From NCBI GenBank assembly GCA_000092065.1, contig CP000601.1: DNA of 64,000 nt; one strand, 5' to 3'. Every line of letters starts with the position of its first letter. Position 1 is the stretch's first letter. Shown here piece by piece: positions 1-56,063 of this stretch. Below the pieces are notes generated by a model. That model made no database searches. It saw only the letters and a program-made list of their open reading frames with translations, and was not told the DNA's origin. The position numbers and the translations under genes are program-made. The DNA comes from Ostreococcus lucimarinus (Eukaryota).

Positions 1-278
1 CGCGTAATCATTACTTCACACGTTGGCGGAACGCGATTCGGCAGCGCGAAGAGATGCAACGAATGGTTGTTAGCAAGCGCGTGACTCATAACTTGTTCCT
101 CGATTGGTATTGGGAAACGTTCGGCGAGCAGTTCACACGGCTCATCGAAGGCAACGATACAGACGAGTATCAGACTTTAGTTCGCGTGGACGATCCTGAG
201 GTGGAACTATTCCACACGCCCTTGCGAACGCCTGAAAAGGTGTTCTGGAGTCCACCGAAACCGCGTAGGATTTTATAG
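1..278 (+). CDS. 3' end of an unidentified gene (open to window start)
   Basis: Frame of ORF 54..278 stays open back to nt 3 (RNHYFTRWRNAIRQREEMQRMVV...). It stops at 278 before an AT-rich convergent 3' spacer (279..321). No domain recognised. Confidence 0.3.
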   Translation, partial: RNHYFTRWRNAIRQREEMQRMVVSKRVTHNLFLDWYWETFGEQFTRLIEGNDTDEYQTLVRVDDPEVELFHTPLRTPEKVFWSPPKPRRIL

Positions 279-321
279 TACATAATATTTGCGCGTTAAA
301 AAATCATAAAATCTGAATCCG

Positions 322-1272
322 TCATTCATCCGTCGAACGGAAACTCTCCGACGTGCTCTCGACGACTCTTGTCATCGCCGTCGATACCTGCTTGCTCGCG
401 AGCGCAATCTTTCCCACGATTTCTGCTAGATCTCGTCCTTTAGATTCACCGTTGGCCGCGCCTTGCAGTTGCGTCGACAGTTTTGCCGCGCTCTCCGTCG
501 TTTCCTTCGCCGCTGAGATTGCCTCTGTGAGGGCGTTCTTCCGCCGCGCCTTTTCCGCCGCGCTCAAATTCTTCGCGTCTTCGTCAAACGCACCATCGTC
601 TAAATAAATGCCCACGCTCTGCATGACTAGCCCGAGCTCAAGCGACAAACGCCTGACGTACTCAGTCGCATCGTCTCCCAAATCCCGAAAATCCTTCGTC
701 GGATCTTTCATCTTTGCCGTGAAATCGTTTACGAGCGACTCGACGTACTCCGTCGCATCCAATTTCGACAACGCCTCCCGCGTTTCCGCCGCCAACGCCT
801 CCACCTCTCGCGCGCTCTCTTCCATCGCTTGCAGCGTCTCCGGTAGCTCCTTCGCAGTGTTTTTCGCTAACGCCTCCACTTCATTCGCCGCGCTTTCCGC
901 CGCCGTCGCCGCCGCGTCGACGCTCGCGCTCAGCTCCCGCAGCGACCGCACGAGCGGCGCCACCGCGCCCACCGTCGTCAGCAGCGCCGCGCCGGCGGCG
1001 GCAAATGCGAACGACGTGACGTCGCGCCCGGCGACGGCGACGAGCGGCGGTTTCGGCGCCGCACGCGACGACGCCGTCGACGTTTGCGTCGTCGACCGCG
1101 ACGGCGGCGCCCAGCGGCCGGCGGCGTTCGCGCGCGCGCTGTGGCGCGTTGCGCGTCGAACGTTCGCGTTGCGCGTCGAGCGCGCGCGAACGCTCGGACG
1201 CGAAGCGAACGAAGCGCTCGACGCGAGACGCATGCGCACCGAGGCGTGAAGGTCGCGCGATTGTGGCGTCAC
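322..1272 (-). CDS. hypothetical protein with R/S-rich presequence, one TM segment and a coiled-coil/LEA-like body
   Basis: 316-aa ORF. N-term is MTPQSRDLHASVRMRLASSASFASRPSVRARS... (organellar-presequence-like), followed by a hydrophobic FAFAAAGAALLTTVGAVAPLV and an A/E/K-rich helical body. Confidence 0.45.
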   Translation of the reverse strand: MTPQSRDLHASVRMRLASSASFASRPSVRARSTRNANVRRATRHSARANAAGRWAPPSRSTTQTSTASSRAAPKPPLVAVAGRDVTSFAFAAAGAALLTTVGAVAPLVRSLRELSASVDAAATAAESAANEVEALAKNTAKELPETLQAMEESAREVEALAAETREALSKLDATEYVESLVNDFTAKMKDPTKDFRDLGDDATEYVRRLSLELGLVMQSVGIYLDDGAFDEDAKNLSAAEKARRKNALTEAISAAKETTESAAKLSTQLQGAANGESKGRDLAEIVGKIALASKQVSTAMTRVVESTSESFRSTDE

Positions 1273-1317
1273 CAGCCGCGGGGACGCGACGACTCGCGAG
1301 ACTAAACAATCAATGCG

Positions 1318-2880
1318 TTACAAGCTACGGTCGATCGCCTTGAGAGCGTCGGCTGTGGAGACAAACTTTTCTCGTGGTTTTCCGCGCGCAGCGCCGCGCT
1401 CGCGCTCGAGGCGATCGATTTGAATCCAGTCGGCGGCGCGCACGACGCGGACGCCGCGCTTCTCGAGGAGGCGGTCGACGCCGTCCTCGACAGGATCGGG
1501 AGGTGGGGCGACGGCGAAATCGGCAGCCATTTTTGCGATAGTTTCGTCGGCACACGTGAGATTGGTGCCGATGATTCCTGTTGGTCCGCGTTTGAGCCAG
1601 CCGGTGACGTAGAGACGAGGAATGGTATCGGCGGAATCCGCCGAGACGGCGACGGCGCCGTACGCGTTTGGCACAACGCGATTCTTTTCGTCGAATGGCA
1701 GTCGCAATTGAGTCAAGGATTCGTCTTTGACGGTCATTTGAATCGGTTCTGCACGATATCCCACTGAACGCAGCGCTAAGGCGGTGGGAACCATCTCCGT
1801 TTCGCCAGATGCGATGGATTTTCGCGCGCCGGCGGCGCCGACGAGTTCGTTCCTACCGAGCTTCATCCAACTCAACACACCATTTTCACCCCCGAACGCT
1901 AGTGGACTTGCGAGAAATCGCACATTGAGTATTTTTGTGCATCCATCCTCGCTCGCACACTCCCCTGCGGTCTTTCTCTTGACGAACGCCTCGTGCGCTC
2001 GCCGCCGCGGTCTGTTCTCCGCCAACTCGGCTTCGTCTTCGGGCTCCAGCGTGAGGTTCTCGTCCGAAATCACCACTCTTACGTTCCGCAAATTCAACAG
2101 CTCGCGCAACTCCTTCGGTGAAAATGAAGCTTGCGCTACCCCGCGTCGCCCGATCACGGACACGGCGCGCACGGGATGGGCGCGCAGCACCTCCAGCGCG
2201 TGCTCGCAAATATCCGTCCCCGCGAGCGCATCCGCGTCTCGTAACAACACCCGCGCGCAATCGATGGCGACGTTCCCGACCCCGATCACCGCCACGTGTG
2301 CATCACCATCACGACTACGCAAAGCCTCCACTACCGCCGCGTGCGTCGCGCTCTGCGGCCCGTGTTCGGGATCGCCGTTGAACCACGCGACGAACTCTCT
2401 CGCTCCGAGCACGCCTCGGTGTTCGCCCTCTCCCGGTACCTCCAAACGTCTGTCTCCGCTCGTCCCGCACGCGAGCACGACGCCGTGGTAGCTATCATAA
2501 AGTTCTCCTAAACTCACGTCTCGCCCGAGTTGGACGTTGCCGTAAAACGCGACGTCGTCTCGCGTCGTGAGCGTTTCATGAAACTTGTTCGTCACGAGCT
2601 TCGTCTCCGCGTGGTCGGGCGCGACACCGTAGCGCACCAAACCGAATGGCGCGGGGTAGCGTTCGAACACGTCTACTTTTGCGCCATCGAACGTCTTCGT
2701 GAGCGCCAAGACGGCGTACATGCCCGCGGGACCGCTGCCGACGACGGCGAATCGCCGCGGACTCGGCCCGGCGGCGGATGAGGATGCGCGAAGCGCGAGC
2801 GCGTGCGGAAGATCTACGCGCGCGCACGACGCGTGTGCATCGCGTGCGAACGTCGCGAGACGTCGCGCGAGTCGCGACAT
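1318..2880 (-). CDS. FDXR: NADPH:adrenodoxin (ferredoxin) oxidoreductase, mitochondrial (FDXR/Arh1 family)
   Basis: 520 aa. FAD-binding motif VVGSGPAGMY. Carries RLYVTGWLKRGPTGIIGTNLTCADETI and the C-terminal ADWIQIDRLERERG...GKPREKF signature of adrenodoxin reductases. Has an N-terminal presequence. Confidence 0.9.
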   Translation of the reverse strand: MSRLARRLATFARDAHASCARVDLPHALALRASSSAAGPSPRRFAVVGSGPAGMYAVLALTKTFDGAKVDVFERYPAPFGLVRYGVAPDHAETKLVTNKFHETLTTRDDVAFYGNVQLGRDVSLGELYDSYHGVVLACGTSGDRRLEVPGEGEHRGVLGAREFVAWFNGDPEHGPQSATHAAVVEALRSRDGDAHVAVIGVGNVAIDCARVLLRDADALAGTDICEHALEVLRAHPVRAVSVIGRRGVAQASFSPKELRELLNLRNVRVVISDENLTLEPEDEAELAENRPRRRAHEAFVKRKTAGECASEDGCTKILNVRFLASPLAFGGENGVLSWMKLGRNELVGAAGARKSIASGETEMVPTALALRSVGYRAEPIQMTVKDESLTQLRLPFDEKNRVVPNAYGAVAVSADSADTIPRLYVTGWLKRGPTGIIGTNLTCADETIAKMAADFAVAPPPDPVEDGVDRLLEKRGVRVVRAADWIQIDRLERERGAARGKPREKFVSTADALKAIDRSL

Positions 2881-10524: not shown

Positions 10525-10778
10525 TCCTTTGTCGATCGTCACCGCGTCGATCGTCACCGCGTCGGCGCGTCTCCCGCGTCGTCTCTCGCGTCGTCTCGCG
10601 TTTGTTCTCGCGTTCGTTCGCGCGTCCGACGCCTCGAAAGCTTCGCCGCGCGCGCGCGTCTCCCGCGTCGCGTCGCGTCGCGCCGCGCGTCGCGCAGTCG
10701 CGCGGTCGTCGCTGGAATTTTAAATTTTTCGCGCCACCTGTCGCGGCGTTTGAAAATCCTCCCGTGTGTGTCTTCGCA

Positions 10779-10835
10779 CTGTTTACCCATACGTGTCGGA
10801 AATCTTGTGACTGTTTACCCATACGTGTCGGAAAT
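10779..10835 (+). promoter_or_regulatory. tandem direct repeat (2 x 25 bp, CTGTTTACCCATACGTGTCGGAAAT, 7-bp spacer) in the primase/USP bidirectional promoter, abutting the USP ATG
   Basis: Copy 1 is 10779..10803 and copy 2 is 10811..10835; the last T of copy 2 is the T of the USP ATG (10834..10836). The related CTGTTTACCCACACGACATCGACG lies at 55681 upstream of UGDH. Confidence 0.5.
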
Positions 10836-12777
10836 GAACGCGCGCGCGCGCGCCGACGCCGCGCGACGACGGACGACGACGCGCGCGATGGCCGCGATGG
10901 ACGACGCGCGCGCGAGCGCGACGGCCGTCGTCGACGCGCACGTCGCGCGCGGCGCGCTGACGACGGACGACGCGCGGACGCTGCGCGAAACGATCGCGCT
11001 GGGACAAGCGCATCTGATCGCGGATTGGCCGGCGCCGGGCGTGGACGACGAGAGGAAGCGCGCGTTCGTCGAGGAAGTGCGACGGGCGGATCGGGGGTAC
11101 CCGGGGGGGGTGGCGAAGTACGTGTCGAACGCGCGCGAGCTGCTGAGGGCGTCGAAGGAGGGGAAGAATCCGTTCGAGGGATGGACGCCGAGCGTGCCCA
11201 CGGGGAAGACGGTGGAGTACGGATCGGCGGCGCACGAGATTCTGGAGAAGATTGGGATGCGGGAGACGGCGGAGACGTGCTTCGTGCTCGTCGCGGGGGG
11301 GTTGGGAGAGCGATTGGGGTACTCGGGGATCAAGGTCGCGCTGCCGGTGGAGCGGGCGACGAACGCGTGCTATTTGGAGTTGTACGTGAAGAATATCTTG
11401 GCGATGGAGAAACGCGCGGAGGGTGCGGAGGGTGCGACGAACGCGGGTGGGTGCGGGTGCTTCGGCGGTGGCGGCGCGAAGGCGAAATCGTCCACGAAGA
11501 TTCCGTTGGCGATCATGACGTCGGAGGACACGCACGCGCTGACGCTCGATTTGCTCGAACGCAACGATTACTTTGGCGCGTCTCGCGATCAAATCACGCT
11601 CATGAAGCAAGAAAAGGTGCCGTGCTTGATGGATAACGATGCACGTTTGGCGGTGAAAGACGACGATCCTTACAAGCTCGCGCTCAAGCCGCACGGCCAC
11701 GGTGACGTGCACTCTCTCCTGCACACGAGCGGGTTGTTATCAAAGTGGATGAGCCAAGGCAAGAAGTGGGTCGTCTTCTTTCAAGACACGAACTCGCTCG
11801 TGTTCCGCGTCATCCCTGGTGCGCTCGGGGTGTCGAAGACGATGAATCTTGAGTTCAATTCTTTGTGCGTTCCGCGAAAAGCCAAGGAAGCGGTCGGTGC
11901 GATTTCGTTGCTAACTCACGAGGATGGACGCAAGATGACCATCAACGTCGAATACAACCAGCTCGATCCGCTTTTGCGAGCCACTACGAATCCCGAAGGC
12001 GACGTCAACGATGCCACGGGCTTCTCCCCATTCCCGGGTAACATCAATCAGCTCATCGTGAGTCTTCCAGAGTACGCAAAACAACTCAAGAAGACTGGCG
12101 GCGCGATCGAAGAATTCGTCAATCCCAAGTACAAGGATGAGACAAAGACGGCTTTCAAATCGCCGACGCGATTGGAGTGCATGATGCAAGACTATCCCAA
12201 GAGCCTCGGATCGAAGGCTAAGGTTGGTTTCACCGTCTTTGCGAACTGGATTGGCTACAGCCCGGTGAAGAACTCTCCGGCGGACGGTTTGGCCAAGTTC
12301 AAATCTAACGGCCCGACGCACACGGCGACGAGCGGCGAGTTTGAGTTTTACGAATCGTGCGCAAACTTGTTGCGTTTGGCCGGTGCCGACGTCCCCGCCG
12401 CCGCCGTCGACGCTGAATTCAACGGTATGAAGCTTCCCATGGGTCCACGTGTTGTGCTCGGTCCGGATGTCGCCACATCTTTTGATGAACTCAAGTCGAA
12501 AGTCGGCGCCGTCAAGTTGGGCGCGAAGAGCGCGCTCGTCGTCGAAGGCTCTGGCGTCAATTTGAAAAACGTCGAAGTGGATGGTGCGCTCGTCATCAAG
12601 GCGTGCGAGGGCGCGGAAGTCATCGTCGATGGTTTGAAAGTGACGAACAAGGGTTGGCAGTGGAAGCCGACCGGCAAAGGTGCGCCCGAAGTCGACGCGC
12701 TCGCGGGATTCGTCGTGAAGAAAAACGAAACGGCCGAGTACGTCTTCGACAAGCCTGGCAAGTACACGCTCCCGTAA
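10834..12777 (+). CDS. USP: UDP-sugar pyrophosphorylase (USP, UTP-monosaccharide-1-phosphate uridylyltransferase)
   Basis: 647 aa from MNARARADAARRR. Motifs FVLVAGGLGERLGYSGIK, IPLAIMTSEDTH, KPHGHGDVH and NINQLIV are characteristic of plant-type USP / UDP-GlcNAc pyrophosphorylase-fold enzymes. Confidence 0.85.
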   Translation: MNARARADAARRRTTTRAMAAMDDARASATAVVDAHVARGALTTDDARTLRETIALGQAHLIADWPAPGVDDERKRAFVEEVRRADRGYPGGVAKYVSNARELLRASKEGKNPFEGWTPSVPTGKTVEYGSAAHEILEKIGMRETAETCFVLVAGGLGERLGYSGIKVALPVERATNACYLELYVKNILAMEKRAEGAEGATNAGGCGCFGGGGAKAKSSTKIPLAIMTSEDTHALTLDLLERNDYFGASRDQITLMKQEKVPCLMDNDARLAVKDDDPYKLALKPHGHGDVHSLLHTSGLLSKWMSQGKKWVVFFQDTNSLVFRVIPGALGVSKTMNLEFNSLCVPRKAKEAVGAISLLTHEDGRKMTINVEYNQLDPLLRATTNPEGDVNDATGFSPFPGNINQLIVSLPEYAKQLKKTGGAIEEFVNPKYKDETKTAFKSPTRLECMMQDYPKSLGSKAKVGFTVFANWIGYSPVKNSPADGLAKFKSNGPTHTATSGEFEFYESCANLLRLAGADVPAAAVDAEFNGMKLPMGPRVVLGPDVATSFDELKSKVGAVKLGAKSALVVEGSGVNLKNVEVDGALVIKACEGAEVIVDGLKVTNKGWQWKPTGKGAPEVDALAGFVVKKNETAEYVFDKPGKYTLP

Positions 12778-22080: not shown

Positions 22081-23544
22081 CTAGGCGCGTTCGGAGAGCT
22101 CGGCGACGCGGGCGCGGAGACGGGCGTTCTCGTCGCGAAGCTCGGCGATGGCGGTCGCTTGGGCTTGGGCTTGGGCGTAGAGATCGCGGAGGGCGGCGGA
22201 GACGGAGGCGGCGGATTGCGCGACTTCGGAAAAGTAGCGTAGATCCACGCCCATGTCGTCCGCGCCGGCTTCGGAGTGCACGGTGAATCGACCTTTTTGT
22301 ACCGCCTTCTTTGTGCGCGAAACGCCCGGCGCGGGTGAGCTCGCGGGCGTGGGAGACGTGCTTCGGCTGCCGCGCTGGTTGTCCTCGATGATGTCAAACC
22401 GTCCTCGTCGCTGCACCGTTTGCGACGTCGCCGACGACTCGGGCGCGTCTTCGGTGATGATTTCGAATCGGCCTTTCTTCTCGATGCTCCTCTTTTCGCC
22501 CATGTGCATGTTTTCGAGCGCGTTCGCCGCGGCGATGGCGTTGGATTCAGCCACCGCGGGATCGTCCATCGCCGCCGCCTGCGCCTTCAATTCGTCGACG
22601 TCAAAATTCCAATTAGACACCCCGTGCTTGTAAGCTTCGTTCGAAGCGGCTTCCGCTTGCGCCTCACCCACGGCGTTCGATTCCGCGCGCCGTTTCGCCT
22701 CGCGTTCGGCGAGCATGCGCGTGCGATCGCCCAGAGAAGGGATGTTTTCGAGCAACGTCTTCGCGAGCCAATCGGCTTTCTTCGCCTCCTTCAAAAATTT
22801 GTGCTCCAAAAGCTTGCTCGCCGGCGGGCGCTTGGACGGATCCTTTTGCAGGCAAAGACTGACGAACTCGCGAAGGGCGCGAGAGAAATGCCGACCGTCT
22901 TCGGGTTGCTCTTCGAGCGTCGGCGCTGGGTTTTGAAGCGTCATCAAGAGCACCTTCATCGGCGGAAACTTGGAAAACGGCGCGTGCCCGTGGCACAACT
23001 CCAGCACCGTGATCCCGAGCGACCAAATGTCGGCGTGAAAATCGTACCCGTTCTCTTGCTCCATCACCTCTGGCGCCATCCAGCACGGCGTGCCGACAAA
23101 AGTCTGGTGCGACCGCGGTCGGCCTCCCGAACCCCAACACGAAGCGCTCACGCCGAAATCGGCCAGCTTCACCGCCCCGTTCTCATCCACCAAAATGTTC
23201 CCAGCCTTGATGTCTCGATGAATATTCCCATTACGATGAAAGTAATCCAGCGCCTTGAGCGCCGCCTTGACGATGCACGCGATGACGGGTTCCTCGAAAC
23301 CTCCCGGATGCGACCACTTCATCAAATTCAGCGCCGATCCCCCCGCGAGATACGGCATCACCACCCAAAGCGACGCCTCGTTCACGAACGAGCTATAATA
23401 TTTCACCAAATTCGGATGACTCAGCATGCTCATCGTCTGCGCCTCGCGTCGGATCTCGTCCAGGTGTTCCGGCTCGTGTTCCTCGAGATCCAAAACCTTC
23501 ACCGCGACGACTTCGTCGTTCGTCGCGCATCGCGCTCGCCACAC
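22081..23544 (-). CDS. STE20-family Ser/Thr kinase, OSR1/SPAK (GCK-VI)-like, exon 2
   Basis: Begins VWRARCATNDEVVAVKVLDLE (VAVK lysine). HRDIKAGNILVDENGAVKLADFGVS, GTPCWMAPE, DIWSLG. C-terminal regulatory region carries the RFxV/I-like GRFDIIED (PF2-like). The ORF-track start is a GTG at the splice acceptor; the Gly-loop is missing from this exon. Confidence 0.85.
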   Translation of the reverse strand: MWRARCATNDEVVAVKVLDLEEHEPEHLDEIRREAQTMSMLSHPNLVKYYSSFVNEASLWVVMPYLAGGSALNLMKWSHPGGFEEPVIACIVKAALKALDYFHRNGNIHRDIKAGNILVDENGAVKLADFGVSASCWGSGGRPRSHQTFVGTPCWMAPEVMEQENGYDFHADIWSLGITVLELCHGHAPFSKFPPMKVLLMTLQNPAPTLEEQPEDGRHFSRALREFVSLCLQKDPSKRPPASKLLEHKFLKEAKKADWLAKTLLENIPSLGDRTRMLAEREAKRRAESNAVGEAQAEAASNEAYKHGVSNWNFDVDELKAQAAAMDDPAVAESNAIAAANALENMHMGEKRSIEKKGRFEIITEDAPESSATSQTVQRRGRFDIIEDNQRGSRSTSPTPASSPAPGVSRTKKAVQKGRFTVHSEAGADDMGVDLRYFSEVAQSAASVSAALRDLYAQAQAQATAIAELRDENARLRARVAELSERA

Positions 23545-23674
23545 CTGCGTCGCGCGCCGACACCATCGCTCGCCCGTCAGTCCCGCGTCCGTCTCGCGTC
23601 ATCGCGCGCGCGTCGTCTCGCGCGTCGTCGTCGCGTCGCGTCGCGTCGCGTCGCGTCGTTCGCCTCGCGCGCAC
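23545..23674 (-). other. inferred 130-bp GT-AG intron (phase 0) in the OSR1-like kinase gene
   Basis: Minus-strand donor GCGACG|GTGCGCGC (intron starts 23674). Acceptor GACGCAG| ends at 23545, then GTGTGGCGA. Interior is (TCGCG)n/(CGACG)n-rich. Splicing joins EIGHGVSAT to VWRARC..., restoring subdomain I-II spacing. Confidence 0.6.
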
Positions 23675-23791
23675 CGTCGCGCTCACGCCGTGCCCGATCT
23701 CCTCGAGCAGCTCGTACGCCGACGCGTTCGTGGGGTACGCCGACGGCGCGCCCGGCGCGTCGCTCGCGCCCTCGCTCGCGTCGCTCGCCAT
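23675..23791 (-). CDS. OSR1/SPAK-like kinase, exon 1 (start codon to Gly-rich loop)
   Basis: ATG at 23791..23789. Encodes MASDASEGASDAPGAPSAYPTNASAYELLEEIGHGVSAT, a 39-aa segment containing the Y.L.E.IG.G.sA.V kinase subdomain I. Confidence 0.6.
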
Positions 23792-23975
23792 GGCGCGCGT
23801 CGCGCGCGTCGATCGTCCGCGCGCGCGCCGCGAAGTGCGACGCCGCGAAGCGCGACGCCGCACGATGTCGCGCGCGCGCGGACGCGCGGCCGCGGCGGCG
23901 CCGACGCGCGCGCGCGCGAGGCGACGCGCGCGAAAGGGCGGTCGTCGAGCGACGCGCGTCGCGCGCGCGCGCGCG

Positions 23976-24007
<32 letters not shown>

Positions 24008-24014
24008 TGGACGC

Positions 24015-24767
24015 ATGCGAGAGGACGAACTGCGCGCGGCGATCGACGAAGCGAGAGAGATCCTCGCCGAGGCCGCGCGAATGGCGAACGAACAGGCGCG
24101 CGCGGAGCTCGCGCGAACGTTCGACGCGGGCGACGGACGCGGCGCGGCGTTCGAGTGCGTGCGGGTGGAGGAGTTTTTGAAGGGGAAGGGCGCGCGAACG
24201 CTCGACGCGGAGCGCGCGGCGAGGGAGCTGTACATCGGGGACGCGTACTTTCAAGACGTCGAAAAGTTGATGGTGCAGTTCGATCGGTTGGAGCGCGCGC
24301 TGGGAGGGGTGCCGGGAATGAACGTGGGCGCGCTCGTGGGGCGGTGCACGGAGGTGGCGACGTGCGACATCGCGAGGGCGACGGCGAACTTGTTGACGCT
24401 GCGAGGGGCGTTTAAGGTGGGAAAGATTAGCGCCATGGTGATGGATTGTCCGAAACTGTTGATGTGTGACGATTTGGAAGATCGCATACGGCGCACGCAA
24501 GCGTGCATCACGCGGATTTGGGCTTCGGAGAGCGACGAGGATACGATTTACGCGATCTCAGAGGAACCAAATTTGCTCTTCACGCTGTGCGATTTGCCGA
24601 TCTTCGCGGAAGATATCTCGGTCGATATTTCAGAGCTTCCGATGTCGGTGCAAGGTGCGTGTGTTGTCGTCGCGCGCGCGCGCGTTCGTCGTCGAACGGC
24701 GTTTGTTTCTAACCATTCTTCGCGTGTAGAGGCGCTCGTTTTCGCGACTCGAAGGTTCAAAGCTTAA
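24015..24767 (+). CDS. hypothetical protein (weak mTERF-like helical-repeat resemblance)
   Basis: ORF 23730..24767; proposed start MREDELRAAI at 24015. The earlier in-frame ATG at 23790 overlaps the kinase start codon on the other strand. Repeated L..G.....I..m...P.LL motifs (KVGKISAMVMDCPKLLMCD; DTIYAISEEPNLLFT) loosely resemble mTERF repeats. Confidence 0.4.
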   Translation: MREDELRAAIDEAREILAEAARMANEQARAELARTFDAGDGRGAAFECVRVEEFLKGKGARTLDAERAARELYIGDAYFQDVEKLMVQFDRLERALGGVPGMNVGALVGRCTEVATCDIARATANLLTLRGAFKVGKISAMVMDCPKLLMCDDLEDRIRRTQACITRIWASESDEDTIYAISEEPNLLFTLCDLPIFAEDISVDISELPMSVQGACVVVARARVRRRTAFVSNHSSRVEALVFATRRFKA

Positions 24768-40277: not shown

Positions 40278-40318
40278 CGTGTAATACGGCGAATTAAACG
40301 TCGTGTACCACGACGGCT

Positions 40319-41731
40319 GTGATGACCATCGATTCGTACCGTCGTCAGTCCTCCGCGTCGCGTCGTCCGCGCGTCGCGTCGCGTCGATTCATTCGTTCCG
40401 TCGGGTTAGTAACCGTCCTCGGAATTCCATCGATTCGCGGCAGTCTCGTCGCGCGCGTCCGCGTCGTCCGCGCGCCCGATCGCGTCGCGTCGCGTCGCAT
40501 CGCACGCACGTCGCCGAAAGGCACGCCCTCGCCGAACGGCTCGCGCGTCGTCATGATTGAACGATTCGATCGATTGTGCCGTCGGCTTGAAGTGACGCGA
40601 CGCGACGACACACGCCGACGCCGACGCGGACGCGGACGCGAGGCGCGAGCACCGATGGCGAGGCGCGCGCAGTGGCGGTCGTTCGCGCACGCGAAGTGCG
40701 ACGTCGACGACGCCCTCGCGACGACGTTCGCGCTCGCGAAATCGGTCGAGGTGGCGGTGCCGCGAGGACGGCGCGACGACGAGGACGCGATCGCGCGCGC
40801 GCTCGACGACGACGCGAATGCGATCGTCGGGACACATTTCGAGGCGGAGATGTCGATCGCGGACGCGCTGGACCCGCACTTCGTGCACGAACACGTGCGA
40901 CGGTGGACGGCGGCGAAGACGAAGACGCGCGACGCGGGCGCGACGTTTGGGCTGACGACGATCGACGCCGAGGTAGATTCGGACGATTGTTTTTGCGTGA
41001 CGCCGAAGGGACGATTCGTTGCGTCGCTCATGGCGGACGCAAAGGAAAGTTTGGGGATGCAAACGACGGAGGACGCGCGCGGGAAGGCGCTCGCGAGCGT
41101 GAATTTGACGCGAGAAGAGTTCAAGGTGGGGAATTGGTTTCACGATCGAATCGGGGCGTGTGCGCGGGCGTTTGAGCAGCGAACGGGAAAGTCAAAGGTA
41201 TTGTGCGCGTACATGGTGAGTGGTGCGCACGAGGAGGTCAAGTTTCCACGCACAGTGACGGCGGCGAGGCGCGCAGAGAGCGTCAAGACTTCGTCGCAAG
41301 TTCGCGTCAATTTGGTGAGTCAAAGTGCCGTGTTACTCGCGTCTGCGAGTCCACCGATGAGAGGCGAGGAAAAGGACATCGATGTTGATGATTTAGATCG
41401 GATTTTAGAATTTTGTGGGCGCATAAGTCTAGGAGACGCCTACATGGAGGGCGCCGAGGACGACCGAGGCGACATCGTCGAGACGCGTCGCTGGCGAGGT
41501 TTGATGTTGTATCCAGATACTCGACGCGTGATTGATATCGCGCGAAGGATCGTGAACGATGGGCTCGCACCGTGGGCCGTCGTCACTGTTTGGGCTTTCG
41601 CACACATGCCGAGCGAACTCACAGGTGAGCCGAGAAAGAAAATTGAGCGCGACTCATGCGCGCCAAAGATGGGCGCCGTGTTCACCATCGTCTTGTACCC
41701 CGACGACAAGTATTTGAAATTCGTAGCGTAG
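40319..41731 (+). CDS. hypothetical protein (no recognised domain); R/S-rich N-terminus
   Basis: 470-aa ORF. First 110 aa are low-complexity and presequence-like, so the real start may be MARRAQWRSF at 40655. The body is non-repetitive with ordinary composition. Confidence 0.4.
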   Translation: MMTIDSYRRQSSASRRPRVASRRFIRSVGLVTVLGIPSIRGSLVARVRVVRAPDRVASRRIARTSPKGTPSPNGSRVVMIERFDRLCRRLEVTRRDDTRRRRRGRGREARAPMARRAQWRSFAHAKCDVDDALATTFALAKSVEVAVPRGRRDDEDAIARALDDDANAIVGTHFEAEMSIADALDPHFVHEHVRRWTAAKTKTRDAGATFGLTTIDAEVDSDDCFCVTPKGRFVASLMADAKESLGMQTTEDARGKALASVNLTREEFKVGNWFHDRIGACARAFEQRTGKSKVLCAYMVSGAHEEVKFPRTVTAARRAESVKTSSQVRVNLVSQSAVLLASASPPMRGEEKDIDVDDLDRILEFCGRISLGDAYMEGAEDDRGDIVETRRWRGLMLYPDTRRVIDIARRIVNDGLAPWAVVTVWAFAHMPSELTGEPRKKIERDSCAPKMGAVFTIVLYPDDKYLKFVA

Positions 41732-47479: not shown

Positions 47480-49030
47480 CTAAGATAATATGAATACAAT
47501 GAACAGAGACAATGCAGTGCCGAGGAATATACCGGCGACGAGGGCAAAGCTGAGGACGACGCCCTCGGCTTGACGTTTTGAGAGCGGCGCGCGGCTGGCG
47601 CCGTGCATCATGGCGACGCTCGCGAGCCAACCATTCGTCACCGCGAGGGCGGATATGAAGAGGAAGGGGAAGAAGTCGGACGCAAACACGGTGGGCACGC
47701 GCCAGTTCGGCGTGGTGACGTTGCAGGCGGCGAGAAACGGGATGAAGGCGAATCGAAGCGTCGCCGCGCGCCGCAACGACGCGCCTCTCGGCGGCGTCTT
47801 GGGATACATTCCAGCCAGATGTCGGCCGAGAAAATCGCCCAAGTTGAAGAGTAAGAATAATACCGGCGACCAAAACGCTCCCATTGCGCCGTGCGAGCTC
47901 TCGATTGAGCTCGTGATTGCCGGAAACGCGCAGAGGCTGGCGATAAACGTCAACGCGACGGCGAGTCTATAATCGCGACTCTCGTCGCCGAAATCCTCCA
48001 CGCCTGTGGAAGCTCTCAACGGCGCGCCCTCGACGTCGCTGTCGTACTCATCGACGTCATCATCCCGTAGGAGCGCGTTCATCTCCGACCGGCGCCCATC
48101 TCGATGCCGCTCGACCCCAGTGAGCTCTTCGAATGCGGGCGTCTTGTCCAATCGCGCCGCCGTCGCCGCGCAACCCAGCACCACCGCCGCGGCGACGTAA
48201 AAATACGCCTGTGCGCCTTTCGCGGACGACGAGGACGAAACTGATCCCCCACCATACGCAGTCGTCGCCAGCGCCACCAAAGAAACCACCACCCCACTCA
48301 CCGCCTGCCCGCTCATCGCGCCCTGCGCGAACTCGGGCGGCAACCGACTCGCGAGCGCGAACCCCCCGGACTGCGCCACCGCCGTCGCCAATCCGACCAC
48401 CACGATCACCCCTAGCGTCTGCGCGAATACGACGTCCATTTTCACCCGTTCCACGCCCGCGACGACCCCACACGTCCATATCCCCACCGCCGCGATTCCC
48501 AGCGCGCTCGCCGTCGCTCGCGAACCCGTCGCCGCGCCGCGCGCGTCCCCATATTTCACCAACCCCGCGCATCCGATCAGATTGCTCAGCGCGTACGCGT
48601 TCGCGAACGTCCCTTCGAAATTCGCCGCGAAGAACGACCCATCGTTCGCGCCATCGTTCGCGAACCGTCGCGCGAAGTACGCGCGCTCGGTGATGAAGAC
48701 GTTCCACGGGAACAGCGTCCCCACGCCCACGGCGACGAAGCGCGCGTACAGCGCGCGCGCCGGCGTCATCGAGGCGCGCGTCGCTCGAGACGCGTTCGCG
48801 TCGTCGCCCGCGCGTCGGCGTCGCGCGTCGGCGTCGGCGTCGACATCGTTCGCGTCGTCGTCGTCGTTCGCGTCATCGACCGTCGGGACCGACGCGTCGG
48901 CGGCGGCGGCGGCGATCGCGTCGCGCGCGCCGCGCTCGGAGTCCCCGCTCGCGCGCGTCGCCGGCGTCGCGCGCATCGCGCCCGCGGCGAGGCGCGCTCT
49001 GCGGCGTCGCGCCATTCGTCGACGCATCAT
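47480..49030 (-). CDS. ENT: equilibrative nucleoside transporter (ENT/SLC29 family)
   Basis: VGVGTLFPWNVFITERAYF (ENT TM1 motif), FAQGAMSGQAVSGVVVS, and an 11-TM-like hydropathy. The acidic/R-rich N-terminal 87 aa may be a 5' extension artefact; alternative start MTPARALYA at about 48769. Confidence 0.8.
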   Translation of the reverse strand: MMRRRMARRRRARLAAGAMRATPATRASGDSERGARDAIAAAAADASVPTVDDANDDDDANDVDADADARRRRAGDDANASRATRASMTPARALYARFVAVGVGTLFPWNVFITERAYFARRFANDGANDGSFFAANFEGTFANAYALSNLIGCAGLVKYGDARGAATGSRATASALGIAAVGIWTCGVVAGVERVKMDVVFAQTLGVIVVVGLATAVAQSGGFALASRLPPEFAQGAMSGQAVSGVVVSLVALATTAYGGGSVSSSSSAKGAQAYFYVAAAVVLGCAATAARLDKTPAFEELTGVERHRDGRRSEMNALLRDDDVDEYDSDVEGAPLRASTGVEDFGDESRDYRLAVALTFIASLCAFPAITSSIESSHGAMGAFWSPVLFLLFNLGDFLGRHLAGMYPKTPPRGASLRRAATLRFAFIPFLAACNVTTPNWRVPTVFASDFFPFLFISALAVTNGWLASVAMMHGASRAPLSKRQAEGVVLSFALVAGIFLGTALSLFIVFILS

Positions 49031-49041
49031 CGATCGAGACG

Positions 49042-49494
49042 ATGACGTTCGCGACGACGACGCGCGCGACGACGACGACGGCGCGATGCGCGACGACGCG
49101 ACGCGCGACGACGCGACGCGCGCGCGGCGTGTTCGCGGCCGCGCGGTCGAGCGCGACGCGCGCGCGCGCGACGACGAAGACGATGACGACGACGCGAAGG
49201 CTGGAATCGCCGCGCGTCGGGAAGACCACGCGCACGCGCGCGACGCCCGCGGACGATGAAGGCGACGTGCCGTTCGGGTACACGCGCGCGGACGTGATGC
49301 TGATCGGGACCGGGGTCACGGGCGCGGGATTCGCGGCGTACTACGGGTTGCAATCGTTCGCGGGGATGGATTCGACGAAGGCGGGCAACGCGGTGCAGTT
49401 GACGTTCGTGCTCGGATTGACGCTCGCGTGGGTGGGGTCGTACGTCATGCGAGTGTTCAATAAGGACATGACTTACGCGAAGCAGTTGAAGGAT
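49042..49494 (+). CDS. small plastid-type membrane protein (DUF3007-like), exon 1
   Basis: T/R/A-rich presequence, then PFGYTRADVMLIGTGVTGAGFAAYYGL ... VQLTFVLGLTLAWVGSYVMRVFNKDMTYAKQLKD. The exon ends at donor GAT|GTGCGT (intron starts 49495). Confidence 0.55.
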
Positions 49495-49603
49495 GTGCGT
49501 GCGAAGCGAACGAGGCGAGAGCGCGAGACGAAACGCGAAGGAGAAAGAAAACGCGAACCGAAGACTGACGCTCAGACGTTTCGTTTCGACGATGGTTAAA
49601 CAG
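49495..49603 (+). other. inferred 109-bp GT-AG intron (phase 0) in the DUF3007-like gene
   Basis: Donor GTGCGT at 49495; acceptor TTAAACAG| ends 49603. Splicing switches from the junk-like read-through ...VRAKRTRRERETKREGERKRE to the well-formed tail YENAVMQKRLEEMPASELEKMMDELDEK. Confidence 0.5.
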
Positions 49604-55695: not shown

Positions 55696-55777
55696 ACATC
55701 GACGCCTCGGAGGCGCGCGCGATCCGGTCGCCCCGCACACGCGCGCGCGCGACGACGCGACGCGACGCGATCGCGGC

Positions 55778-55799
55778 ATGACGAGGCCGATCACGACGA
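55778..55799 (+). CDS. UGD: UDP-glucose 6-dehydrogenase, inferred 22-nt 5' micro-exon (MTRPITT + 1 nt)
   Basis: ATG ACG AGG CCG ATC ACG ACG A | GTGCGTGAAG. The exon is terminated by a GTGCGT donor, and the in-frame stop TGA sits inside that donor. A phase-1 junction with TA at 56064 yields Ile, giving [21 protein letters not shown]. Confidence 0.45.
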
Positions 55800-56063
55800 G
55801 TGCGTGAAGAACGACGCGAGCGACGCGACGCGACGCGACGCGAGACGACGCGACGCGCGAGACGACGCGACGAGGGCGATCGCGACGGTCGTCGGAAAGA
55901 TGTCCGGAAACCATCCGCGAGACGCGGCGACGACCGGAGACGCGACGACGGCGACGGGAGAGCGTTGGGACGGGCGCGAAAGATGGGAGAGCGCGCGACG
56001 GTGCGAATGGAGGCGCGCGAGGACGAAGGACTGACGACGCGCGCGGTTTCGGGGACGACGCAG

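Follow-up and report, generated by a model that had tools for sequence, protein, structure and literature searches.

The window analysed here, a stretch of 64,000 nucleotides from Ostreococcus lucimarinus (assembly GCA_000092065.1, contig CP000601.1), contains on its minus strand a protein kinase gene which we read as two exons separated by a short intron. The features of the locus are as follows (PMC2483917 being the source of both consensus sequences).

23675–23791, minus strand: exon 1 of the kinase gene, 117 nt, comprising 39 codons from the ATG at 23791–23789, MASDASEGASDAPGAPSAYPTNASAYELLEEIGHGVSAT (sequence and translation)
23545–23674, minus strand: predicted spliceosomal GT-AG intron, 130 nt, phase 0, between Thr39 and Val40
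23668–23674, minus strand: 5′ splice site GTGCGCG, matching the consensus GTGCGTG at 6 of 7 positions
23602–23669, minus strand: (GACGC)n simple repeat of the intron interior, (TCGCG)n on the plus strand (TRF period 5, 14 copies, 77% matches)
[quoted passage not shown]
23545–23547, minus strand: 3′ splice site CAG, from the sequence
22081–23544, minus strand: exon 2, 487 codons plus stop, opening with GTGTGG at 23544
22792–23716, minus strand: protein kinase domain, split by the intron, residues 26–290 of the spliced protein (Pfam PF00069, 213 bits, profile positions 1–263 of 263)

Exon 1 ends at 23675 as ...GGCGTGAGCGCGACG, its last bases on the minus strand being GCGACG. The intron opens with GTGCGCGC and closes with GACGCAG, and the CTGAC core of the branch site starts 36 nt before the opening base of exon 2. 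These boundaries had been placed correctly in the earlier note, from the 39-codon segment beginning with ATG and ending GCGACG to the acceptor GACGCAG directly before GTGTGG, and the (TCGCG)n repeat that it described in the intron is the one delimited by TRF in the list above.

The short first exon encodes an N-terminal tail, alignable with the N-termini of orthologues, followed by strand beta-1 and by G-x-G-x-x-A of the Gly-rich ATP loop, and ends ...EEIGHGVSAT. The second exon carries VAVK (Lys55), HRDIKAGN, DFG and TFVGTPCWMAPE, then a disordered tail in which RFx[IV] occurs three times, and finishes in a coiled-coil-like C-terminus. Across the join, marked here and below by a slash, the peptide reads EIGHGVSAT/VWRARCATNDEVVAVKV, and the full spliced product has 526 aa. 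The proposal that a separate first exon supplies the Gly-rich loop is borne out by this product, which covers the Pkinase profile from end to end.

The frames of the two exons differ by +1, and removal of the 130-nt GT..AG segment yields a single continuous frame; since 130 is 1 modulo 3, the exon frames connect only with the intron removed. Reading through the intron shifts the frame and leads to a stop after 132 aa, before any kinase sequence. The earlier note had expected read-through to insert a 43-aa R/D-rich segment between subdomains I and II, which is mistaken, as 130 = 3 × 43 + 1. Correcting this error strengthens the case for splicing, since the gene is readable only when the 130 nt are taken out. 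The supposed ‘GTG start’ of the 487-codon ORF at 22081–23544 is no start codon but an artefact of ORF-style reading: this GTG encodes Val40, with which the Gly-loop motif GHGVSATV ends. The intron therefore lies inside the Gly-rich ATP-binding loop (GHGVSAT/V), not merely upstream of it.

The choice of junction was assessed with a profile made only from orthologues that have no intron at the site, against which all 50 in-frame GT..AG pairs of the region were scored. The pair 23674/23545 came top of the 50 with 261.7 bits. The runner-up, with its acceptor at 23568 and 8 additional residues, reached 249.7 bits, and the long ORF alone obtained 217.4 bits against the same profile, 44 below the spliced model. 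When aligned to the sequences of the SPAK and OSR1 crystal structures, the spliced model is gap-free through the junction, and no gap falls at T39/V40 in an alignment of 11 N-termini; the junction is likewise gap-free against seven orthologues without an intron at the site. The normal spacing between Gly loop and Lys that had been claimed for the joined product thus holds over the junction, both against OSR1/SPAK, the comparison suggested at the time, and against intron-less orthologues.

The splice signals point to the same pair. EST-confirmed introns of O. lucimarinus outside chromosome 2 have an atypical 5′ consensus, GTGCGTG, and a branch site containing ACTGAC in 87% and the extended form GACTGACG in 66.5% (Irimia & Roy 2008, PMC2483917). 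The same paper mentions 17,592 public ESTs. Taken singly, neither element is significantly enriched in the window (GACTGACG, 8 instances vs 4.2 expected; GTGCGYG, 85 vs 75 expected). The composite GTGCGYG...GACTGACG...YAG is found four times vs 0.24 expected from first-order Markov simulations, and 23545–23674 coincides exactly with one of these instances. We put at roughly 0.95 the probability that 23674–23545 is a canonical U2-type spliceosomal intron, and the gene a two-exon gene for a 526-aa kinase of the STE20 group. The spliceosome would cut at the GTGCGCG donor and the CAG acceptor, with GACTGACG as branch site, and removal of the intron would join the two frames into an intact kinase. 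We infer that the mRNA of the window's own strain is spliced at 23675/23544; the start at ATG 23791 and the C-terminal 160 aa of the product are predicted from homology alone.

The full intron signal also joins open frames at the three other places in the window. At 40317–40509 (minus strand) the join reads MTTREPFGEGVPFGD/PSWYTTF after a 15-codon first exon; at 49495–49603 (plus strand) it reads ...AKQLKD/YENAVMQKRLEE, near the 3′ end of a gene; and at 55800–56063 (plus strand) MTRPITT/ closes a first exon of 7 codons that lies immediately ahead of a GxGxxG motif. With the kinase intron included, three of the four composite-signal sites sit at the extreme 5′ end of their gene. A possible 75-nt in-frame intron at 24655–24729 (plus strand), near the 3′ end of the divergent neighbour gene that starts near 24015, reads GTGCGTG...TTCTAAC...TGTAG, with a branch motif of the CTAAC rather than the CTGAC type; because this candidate is both in frame and stop-free, sequence alone does not decide its status.

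The same codon boundary is interrupted in genomic contigs of three related lineages, by 117 nt in L006, by 154 nt in the O. tauri-like L010 and by 233 nt in L011. All three introns have a GTG[CA]G donor, a single CTGAY 28–40 nt from the 3′ end and a YAG acceptor, and in each lineage read-through causes premature termination. The interiors of the four same-position introns are not convincingly alignable: scores are modestly above those of mononucleotide shuffles, and are inflated because the introns share a CG-rich composition. The last 21 codons of exon 1, compared across seven lineages, differ mostly at third positions (205, vs 82 and 49 at the others), as coding sequence does.

A transcript-like counterpart exists for one of these relatives. 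Contig L017, from the Logan assembly of run ERR1712159, aligns to genomic L006 as two blocks at 99%, with precisely the 117-nt intron missing, and its structure suggests a spliced transcript of this sister lineage. On L017 (1797–2279, minus strand, with 154–1752, plus strand) only 45 nt separate the spliced kinase ORF from a convergent TMEM230-like neighbour; the two convergent transcripts probably overlap at their 3′ ends and were for that reason assembled into one contig. For the window's own species, the independent assembly L001 starts within the repeat; the last 108 nt of the intron, at its 3′ side, are present there and look identical by eye, which speaks against an assembly artefact.

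Much of the gene is already represented in public databases. XP_001420970.1/ABO99263.1, a partial protein of 354 aa from O. lucimarinus CCE9901, was found as ‘predicted protein, partial’ in the 90%-identity cluster of the ORF product. It is identical at 354/354 positions to residues 13–366 of the spliced model and runs through GVSAT/VWRARC, that is, across the junction. This identity marks the window as O. lucimarinus CCE9901 or a nearly identical strain. Compared with the spliced model it is partial at both ends, being without the N-terminal 12 aa and the C-terminal 160 aa, the latter holding the RFx[IV] motifs and the coiled coil. The homologous junction, GVSAT/VW, is present in O. tauri XP_022840224.1 (529 aa). 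The junction is therefore already in public gene models, and the only new element is that both ends of the model are now filled in.

Two irregularities in these records deserve mention. The 354-aa partial protein exists under two accession pairs on two contigs (ABO99263.1/XP_001420970.1 and ABP01283.1/XP_001422924.1), which suggests that either the annotation or a segment of CCE9901 has been duplicated. A second O. tauri model, OUS46300.1 (P0212; locus L010, 302–455), has a shorter intron and an early end, and its segment from Gly loop to VAVK is longer by 31 residues (VRTGRGTRETSRTETRAEGWKTTRGDAM...); compared with XP_022840224.1 it is probably a mis-prediction.

In a collection of 15 billion proteins the exact 526-aa product is absent, and the 487-aa ORF product is present on at least 164 contigs (metagenome and Logan). 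The value of the two-exon model is mainly one of annotation. The ORF-only reading drops the first 39 residues and falsely suggests a kinase devoid of an ATP-binding loop; the two-exon model restores an intact enzyme and extends the partial O. lucimarinus GenBank model to 526 aa. The locus is also a further example of the strongly constrained splice signals of Ostreococcus.

The abundance of the 487-aa product might be taken to mean that there is no exon 1, and that the protein starts within the long ORF, at GTG 23544 or at the first internal ATG, as a kinase without a Gly loop. ORF-style gene callers do give exactly this product on those 164 contigs, but the records appear to be just such calls, made on metagenome or Logan contigs of a eukaryote, and nuclear genes do not normally initiate at GTG. 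The ORF has its first ATG only after the VAVK lysine, and a protein begun there would be predicted to be catalytically dead. As exon 1 is moreover conserved as coding sequence in seven lineages, and the ORF alone loses 44 bits, the chance that the exon does not exist is close to negligible. It is hardly more credible that the gene is a pseudogene, or that the 130 nt are an assembly or insertion artefact disrupting it. The intron interior is indeed a simple repeat of the kind that fills the intergenic spacers of the window, but the same intron sequence recurs in the independent assembly L001 and introns occupy the same position in three other lineages, while the splice signals are intact and both exons are under coding constraint.

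Other readings accept an intron but vary its use. Another splice pair, such as one with its acceptor at 23568 or 23592 or its donor at 23686, would keep the frame at a cost that leaves 240–250 bits, and the O. tauri model OUS46300.1 offers a precedent for a shorter intron. Such pairs nevertheless add 8–16 residues, or remove 4, in a segment that is gap-free in all orthologues, and with them the GACTGACG branch site would lie either beyond the intron or at too short a distance from its acceptor; with the published O. lucimarinus protein having the 23674/23544 junction, we consider them very unlikely. Frequent retention of the intron, yielding a regulatory or unproductive isoform in the form of the 132-aa truncated peptide or an NMD target, draws on the frameshift and early stop that retention creates. 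It is very unlikely given signals that are strong and near consensus; no sign of retention was found, and it could coexist with splicing at 23675/23544 but not replace it.

The product of this splicing has its best solved-structure matches in human SPAK (5d9h, E = 6e-94) and OSR1 (2vwi, 3.5e-89), the next family being MST3 (4e-71). The T-loop Thr context T-F-V-G-T-P-C-W-M-A-P-E is found at residues 187–198 (TFVGTPCWMAPE) and aligns with that of SPAK. Database names vary accordingly: JGI orthologues are called OSR1/STK39, plant matches BLUS1 or OSR1, and one O. tauri record ‘putative MAP4K alpha1’. OSR1_C (PF12202, the CCT/PF2 domain) has no match in the whole protein, nor in the tail at E ≤ 10, and no Pfam domain was found in the tail. 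Of the assignment to OSR1 and GCK-VI made in the earlier note, the kinase domain, which is Fray/GCK-VI-like, thus stands; the C-terminal CCT domain is absent, and the architecture would be that of plant clade-III MAP4Ks.

The tail has features of its own. Its RFx[IV] motifs, KKGRFEII, RRGRFDII and QKGRFTVH, fall within residues 395–462 (window 22276–22479, minus strand), and the Mamiellales orthologues, that of Bathycoccus among them, conserve all three. Animal OSR1 and SPAK carry a CCT domain that binds RFxV as its ligand. The algal kinase lacks the CCT domain and instead has the ligand-type motifs; a literature search found no paper on RFxV motifs in BLUS1-type kinases. Plant BLUS1-type MAP4Ks have an RRISGWNF regulatory site (PMC8415026), which the tail motif HGVSNWNF resembles. 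From its sequence, the catalytic core may be expected to work like an OSR1/SPAK-type kinase, within what would be the architecture of the plant clade-III MAP4Ks (the BLUS1/TOT3 group).

The distribution of the intron bears on its origin. The four carriers are O. lucimarinus, the O. tauri-like L010, L006 and L011. The site is uninterrupted in three Ostreococcus-like lineages of the same synteny (L002, L007 and L008), and likewise in Bathycoccus (L015) and in a second mamiellophyte genus (L013), probably Micromonas. An ancient intron common to streptophytes was considered and rejected: in Marchantia a single exon holds the first 200 aa, and in Klebsormidium exon 1 covers aa 1–55, including the Gly loop and VAVK, so that neither shares the position. 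Because the intron is absent from all of these lineages, a gain in the Ostreococcus lineage is the most parsimonious reading. That it is a young, Ostreococcus-specific gain whose presence still varies among Ostreococcus-like species is a more tentative proposal, to which we would give slightly less than even odds. In a neighbour-joining tree of the kinase the Ostreococcus-like group forms a star (bootstraps 6–46%), except for the pairs P0002 + P0004 and L010 + L011, and the intron-less Ostreococcus-like lineages may accordingly be basal or may have lost the intron secondarily. Nor do the flanking genes separate gain from loss, since they have diverged too far or are absent.

As to a possible source of inserted DNA, a BLAST search of the intron against the window shows its interior to resemble the CG-rich low-complexity spacer sequence found all over the window. 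An introner element was also considered and, for the window, rejected, as the same search within the 64 kb returned only low-complexity (GACGC)n matches and no second full-length copy. Rfam, at gathering thresholds over the whole window, gave no match to a structured RNA. Introns and intergenic spacers of the window share (CG)n, (GACGC)n and (GAC)n, for example at 55740–55890, 48790–49130, 10540–10930 and 40350–40650, and the 223 bp at 23792–24014 that separate the kinase gene from its divergently transcribed neighbour consist almost entirely of CG-rich repeats.

The Val codon that follows the junction (23542–23544) is GTG in 4/4 carriers and GTT in 3/3 Ostreococcus-like non-carriers. Common descent might explain this correlation, as might selection on the exonic context of splicing or the duplication of a short target site. 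The (GACGC)n interior and the GTG codon would fit an insertion of spacer-like DNA at a G/GTG site, possibly with a short duplication. If this is true, the locus would offer a small, clean and possibly datable natural case of intron gain in an intron-poor genome.

Compared with the canonical O. lucimarinus introns outside chromosome 2 (PMC2483917), the kinase intron is alike in its GT-AG ends, its GTGCG-type donor, the exact GACTGACG near its 3′ end, its length (130 nt, typical values being 100–170 nt) and its position at the 5′ end of the gene. It differs in having C for T at donor position +6 and in its (GACGC)n microsatellite interior, and otherwise in nothing essential. The encoded kinase shares with animal OSR1/SPAK the Gly loop G-x-G-x-x-A-x-V, the spacing from loop to Lys, the T-loop TFVGTPCWMAPE and the ‘YEL.E.IG’ start. 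Those proteins have a C-terminal CCT/PF2 domain; here none is detected, and there is instead a tail with three RFx[IV] motifs. The plant clade-III MAP4Ks, from Arabidopsis MAP4K4/TOT3 to MAP4K10/BLUS1 (PMC8415026), combine a Fray-like kinase domain with a long, mostly disordered tail, as is the case here, but the algal tail is much shorter and the gene is single-copy in synteny at the Mamiellales loci examined. A last comparison is with the introner elements of Micromonas, which belongs to the same order (PMC3879977, PMC4540971). The kinase intron differs from these in having no second full-length copy in the window, and the four introns at its position are not convincingly alignable. Like the kinase intron, however, the introners are lineage-restricted and vary in presence among relatives, and the IE-C introners of Micromonas RCC299 contain the very same branch motif, GACTGACG (PMC3879977, PMC4540971).
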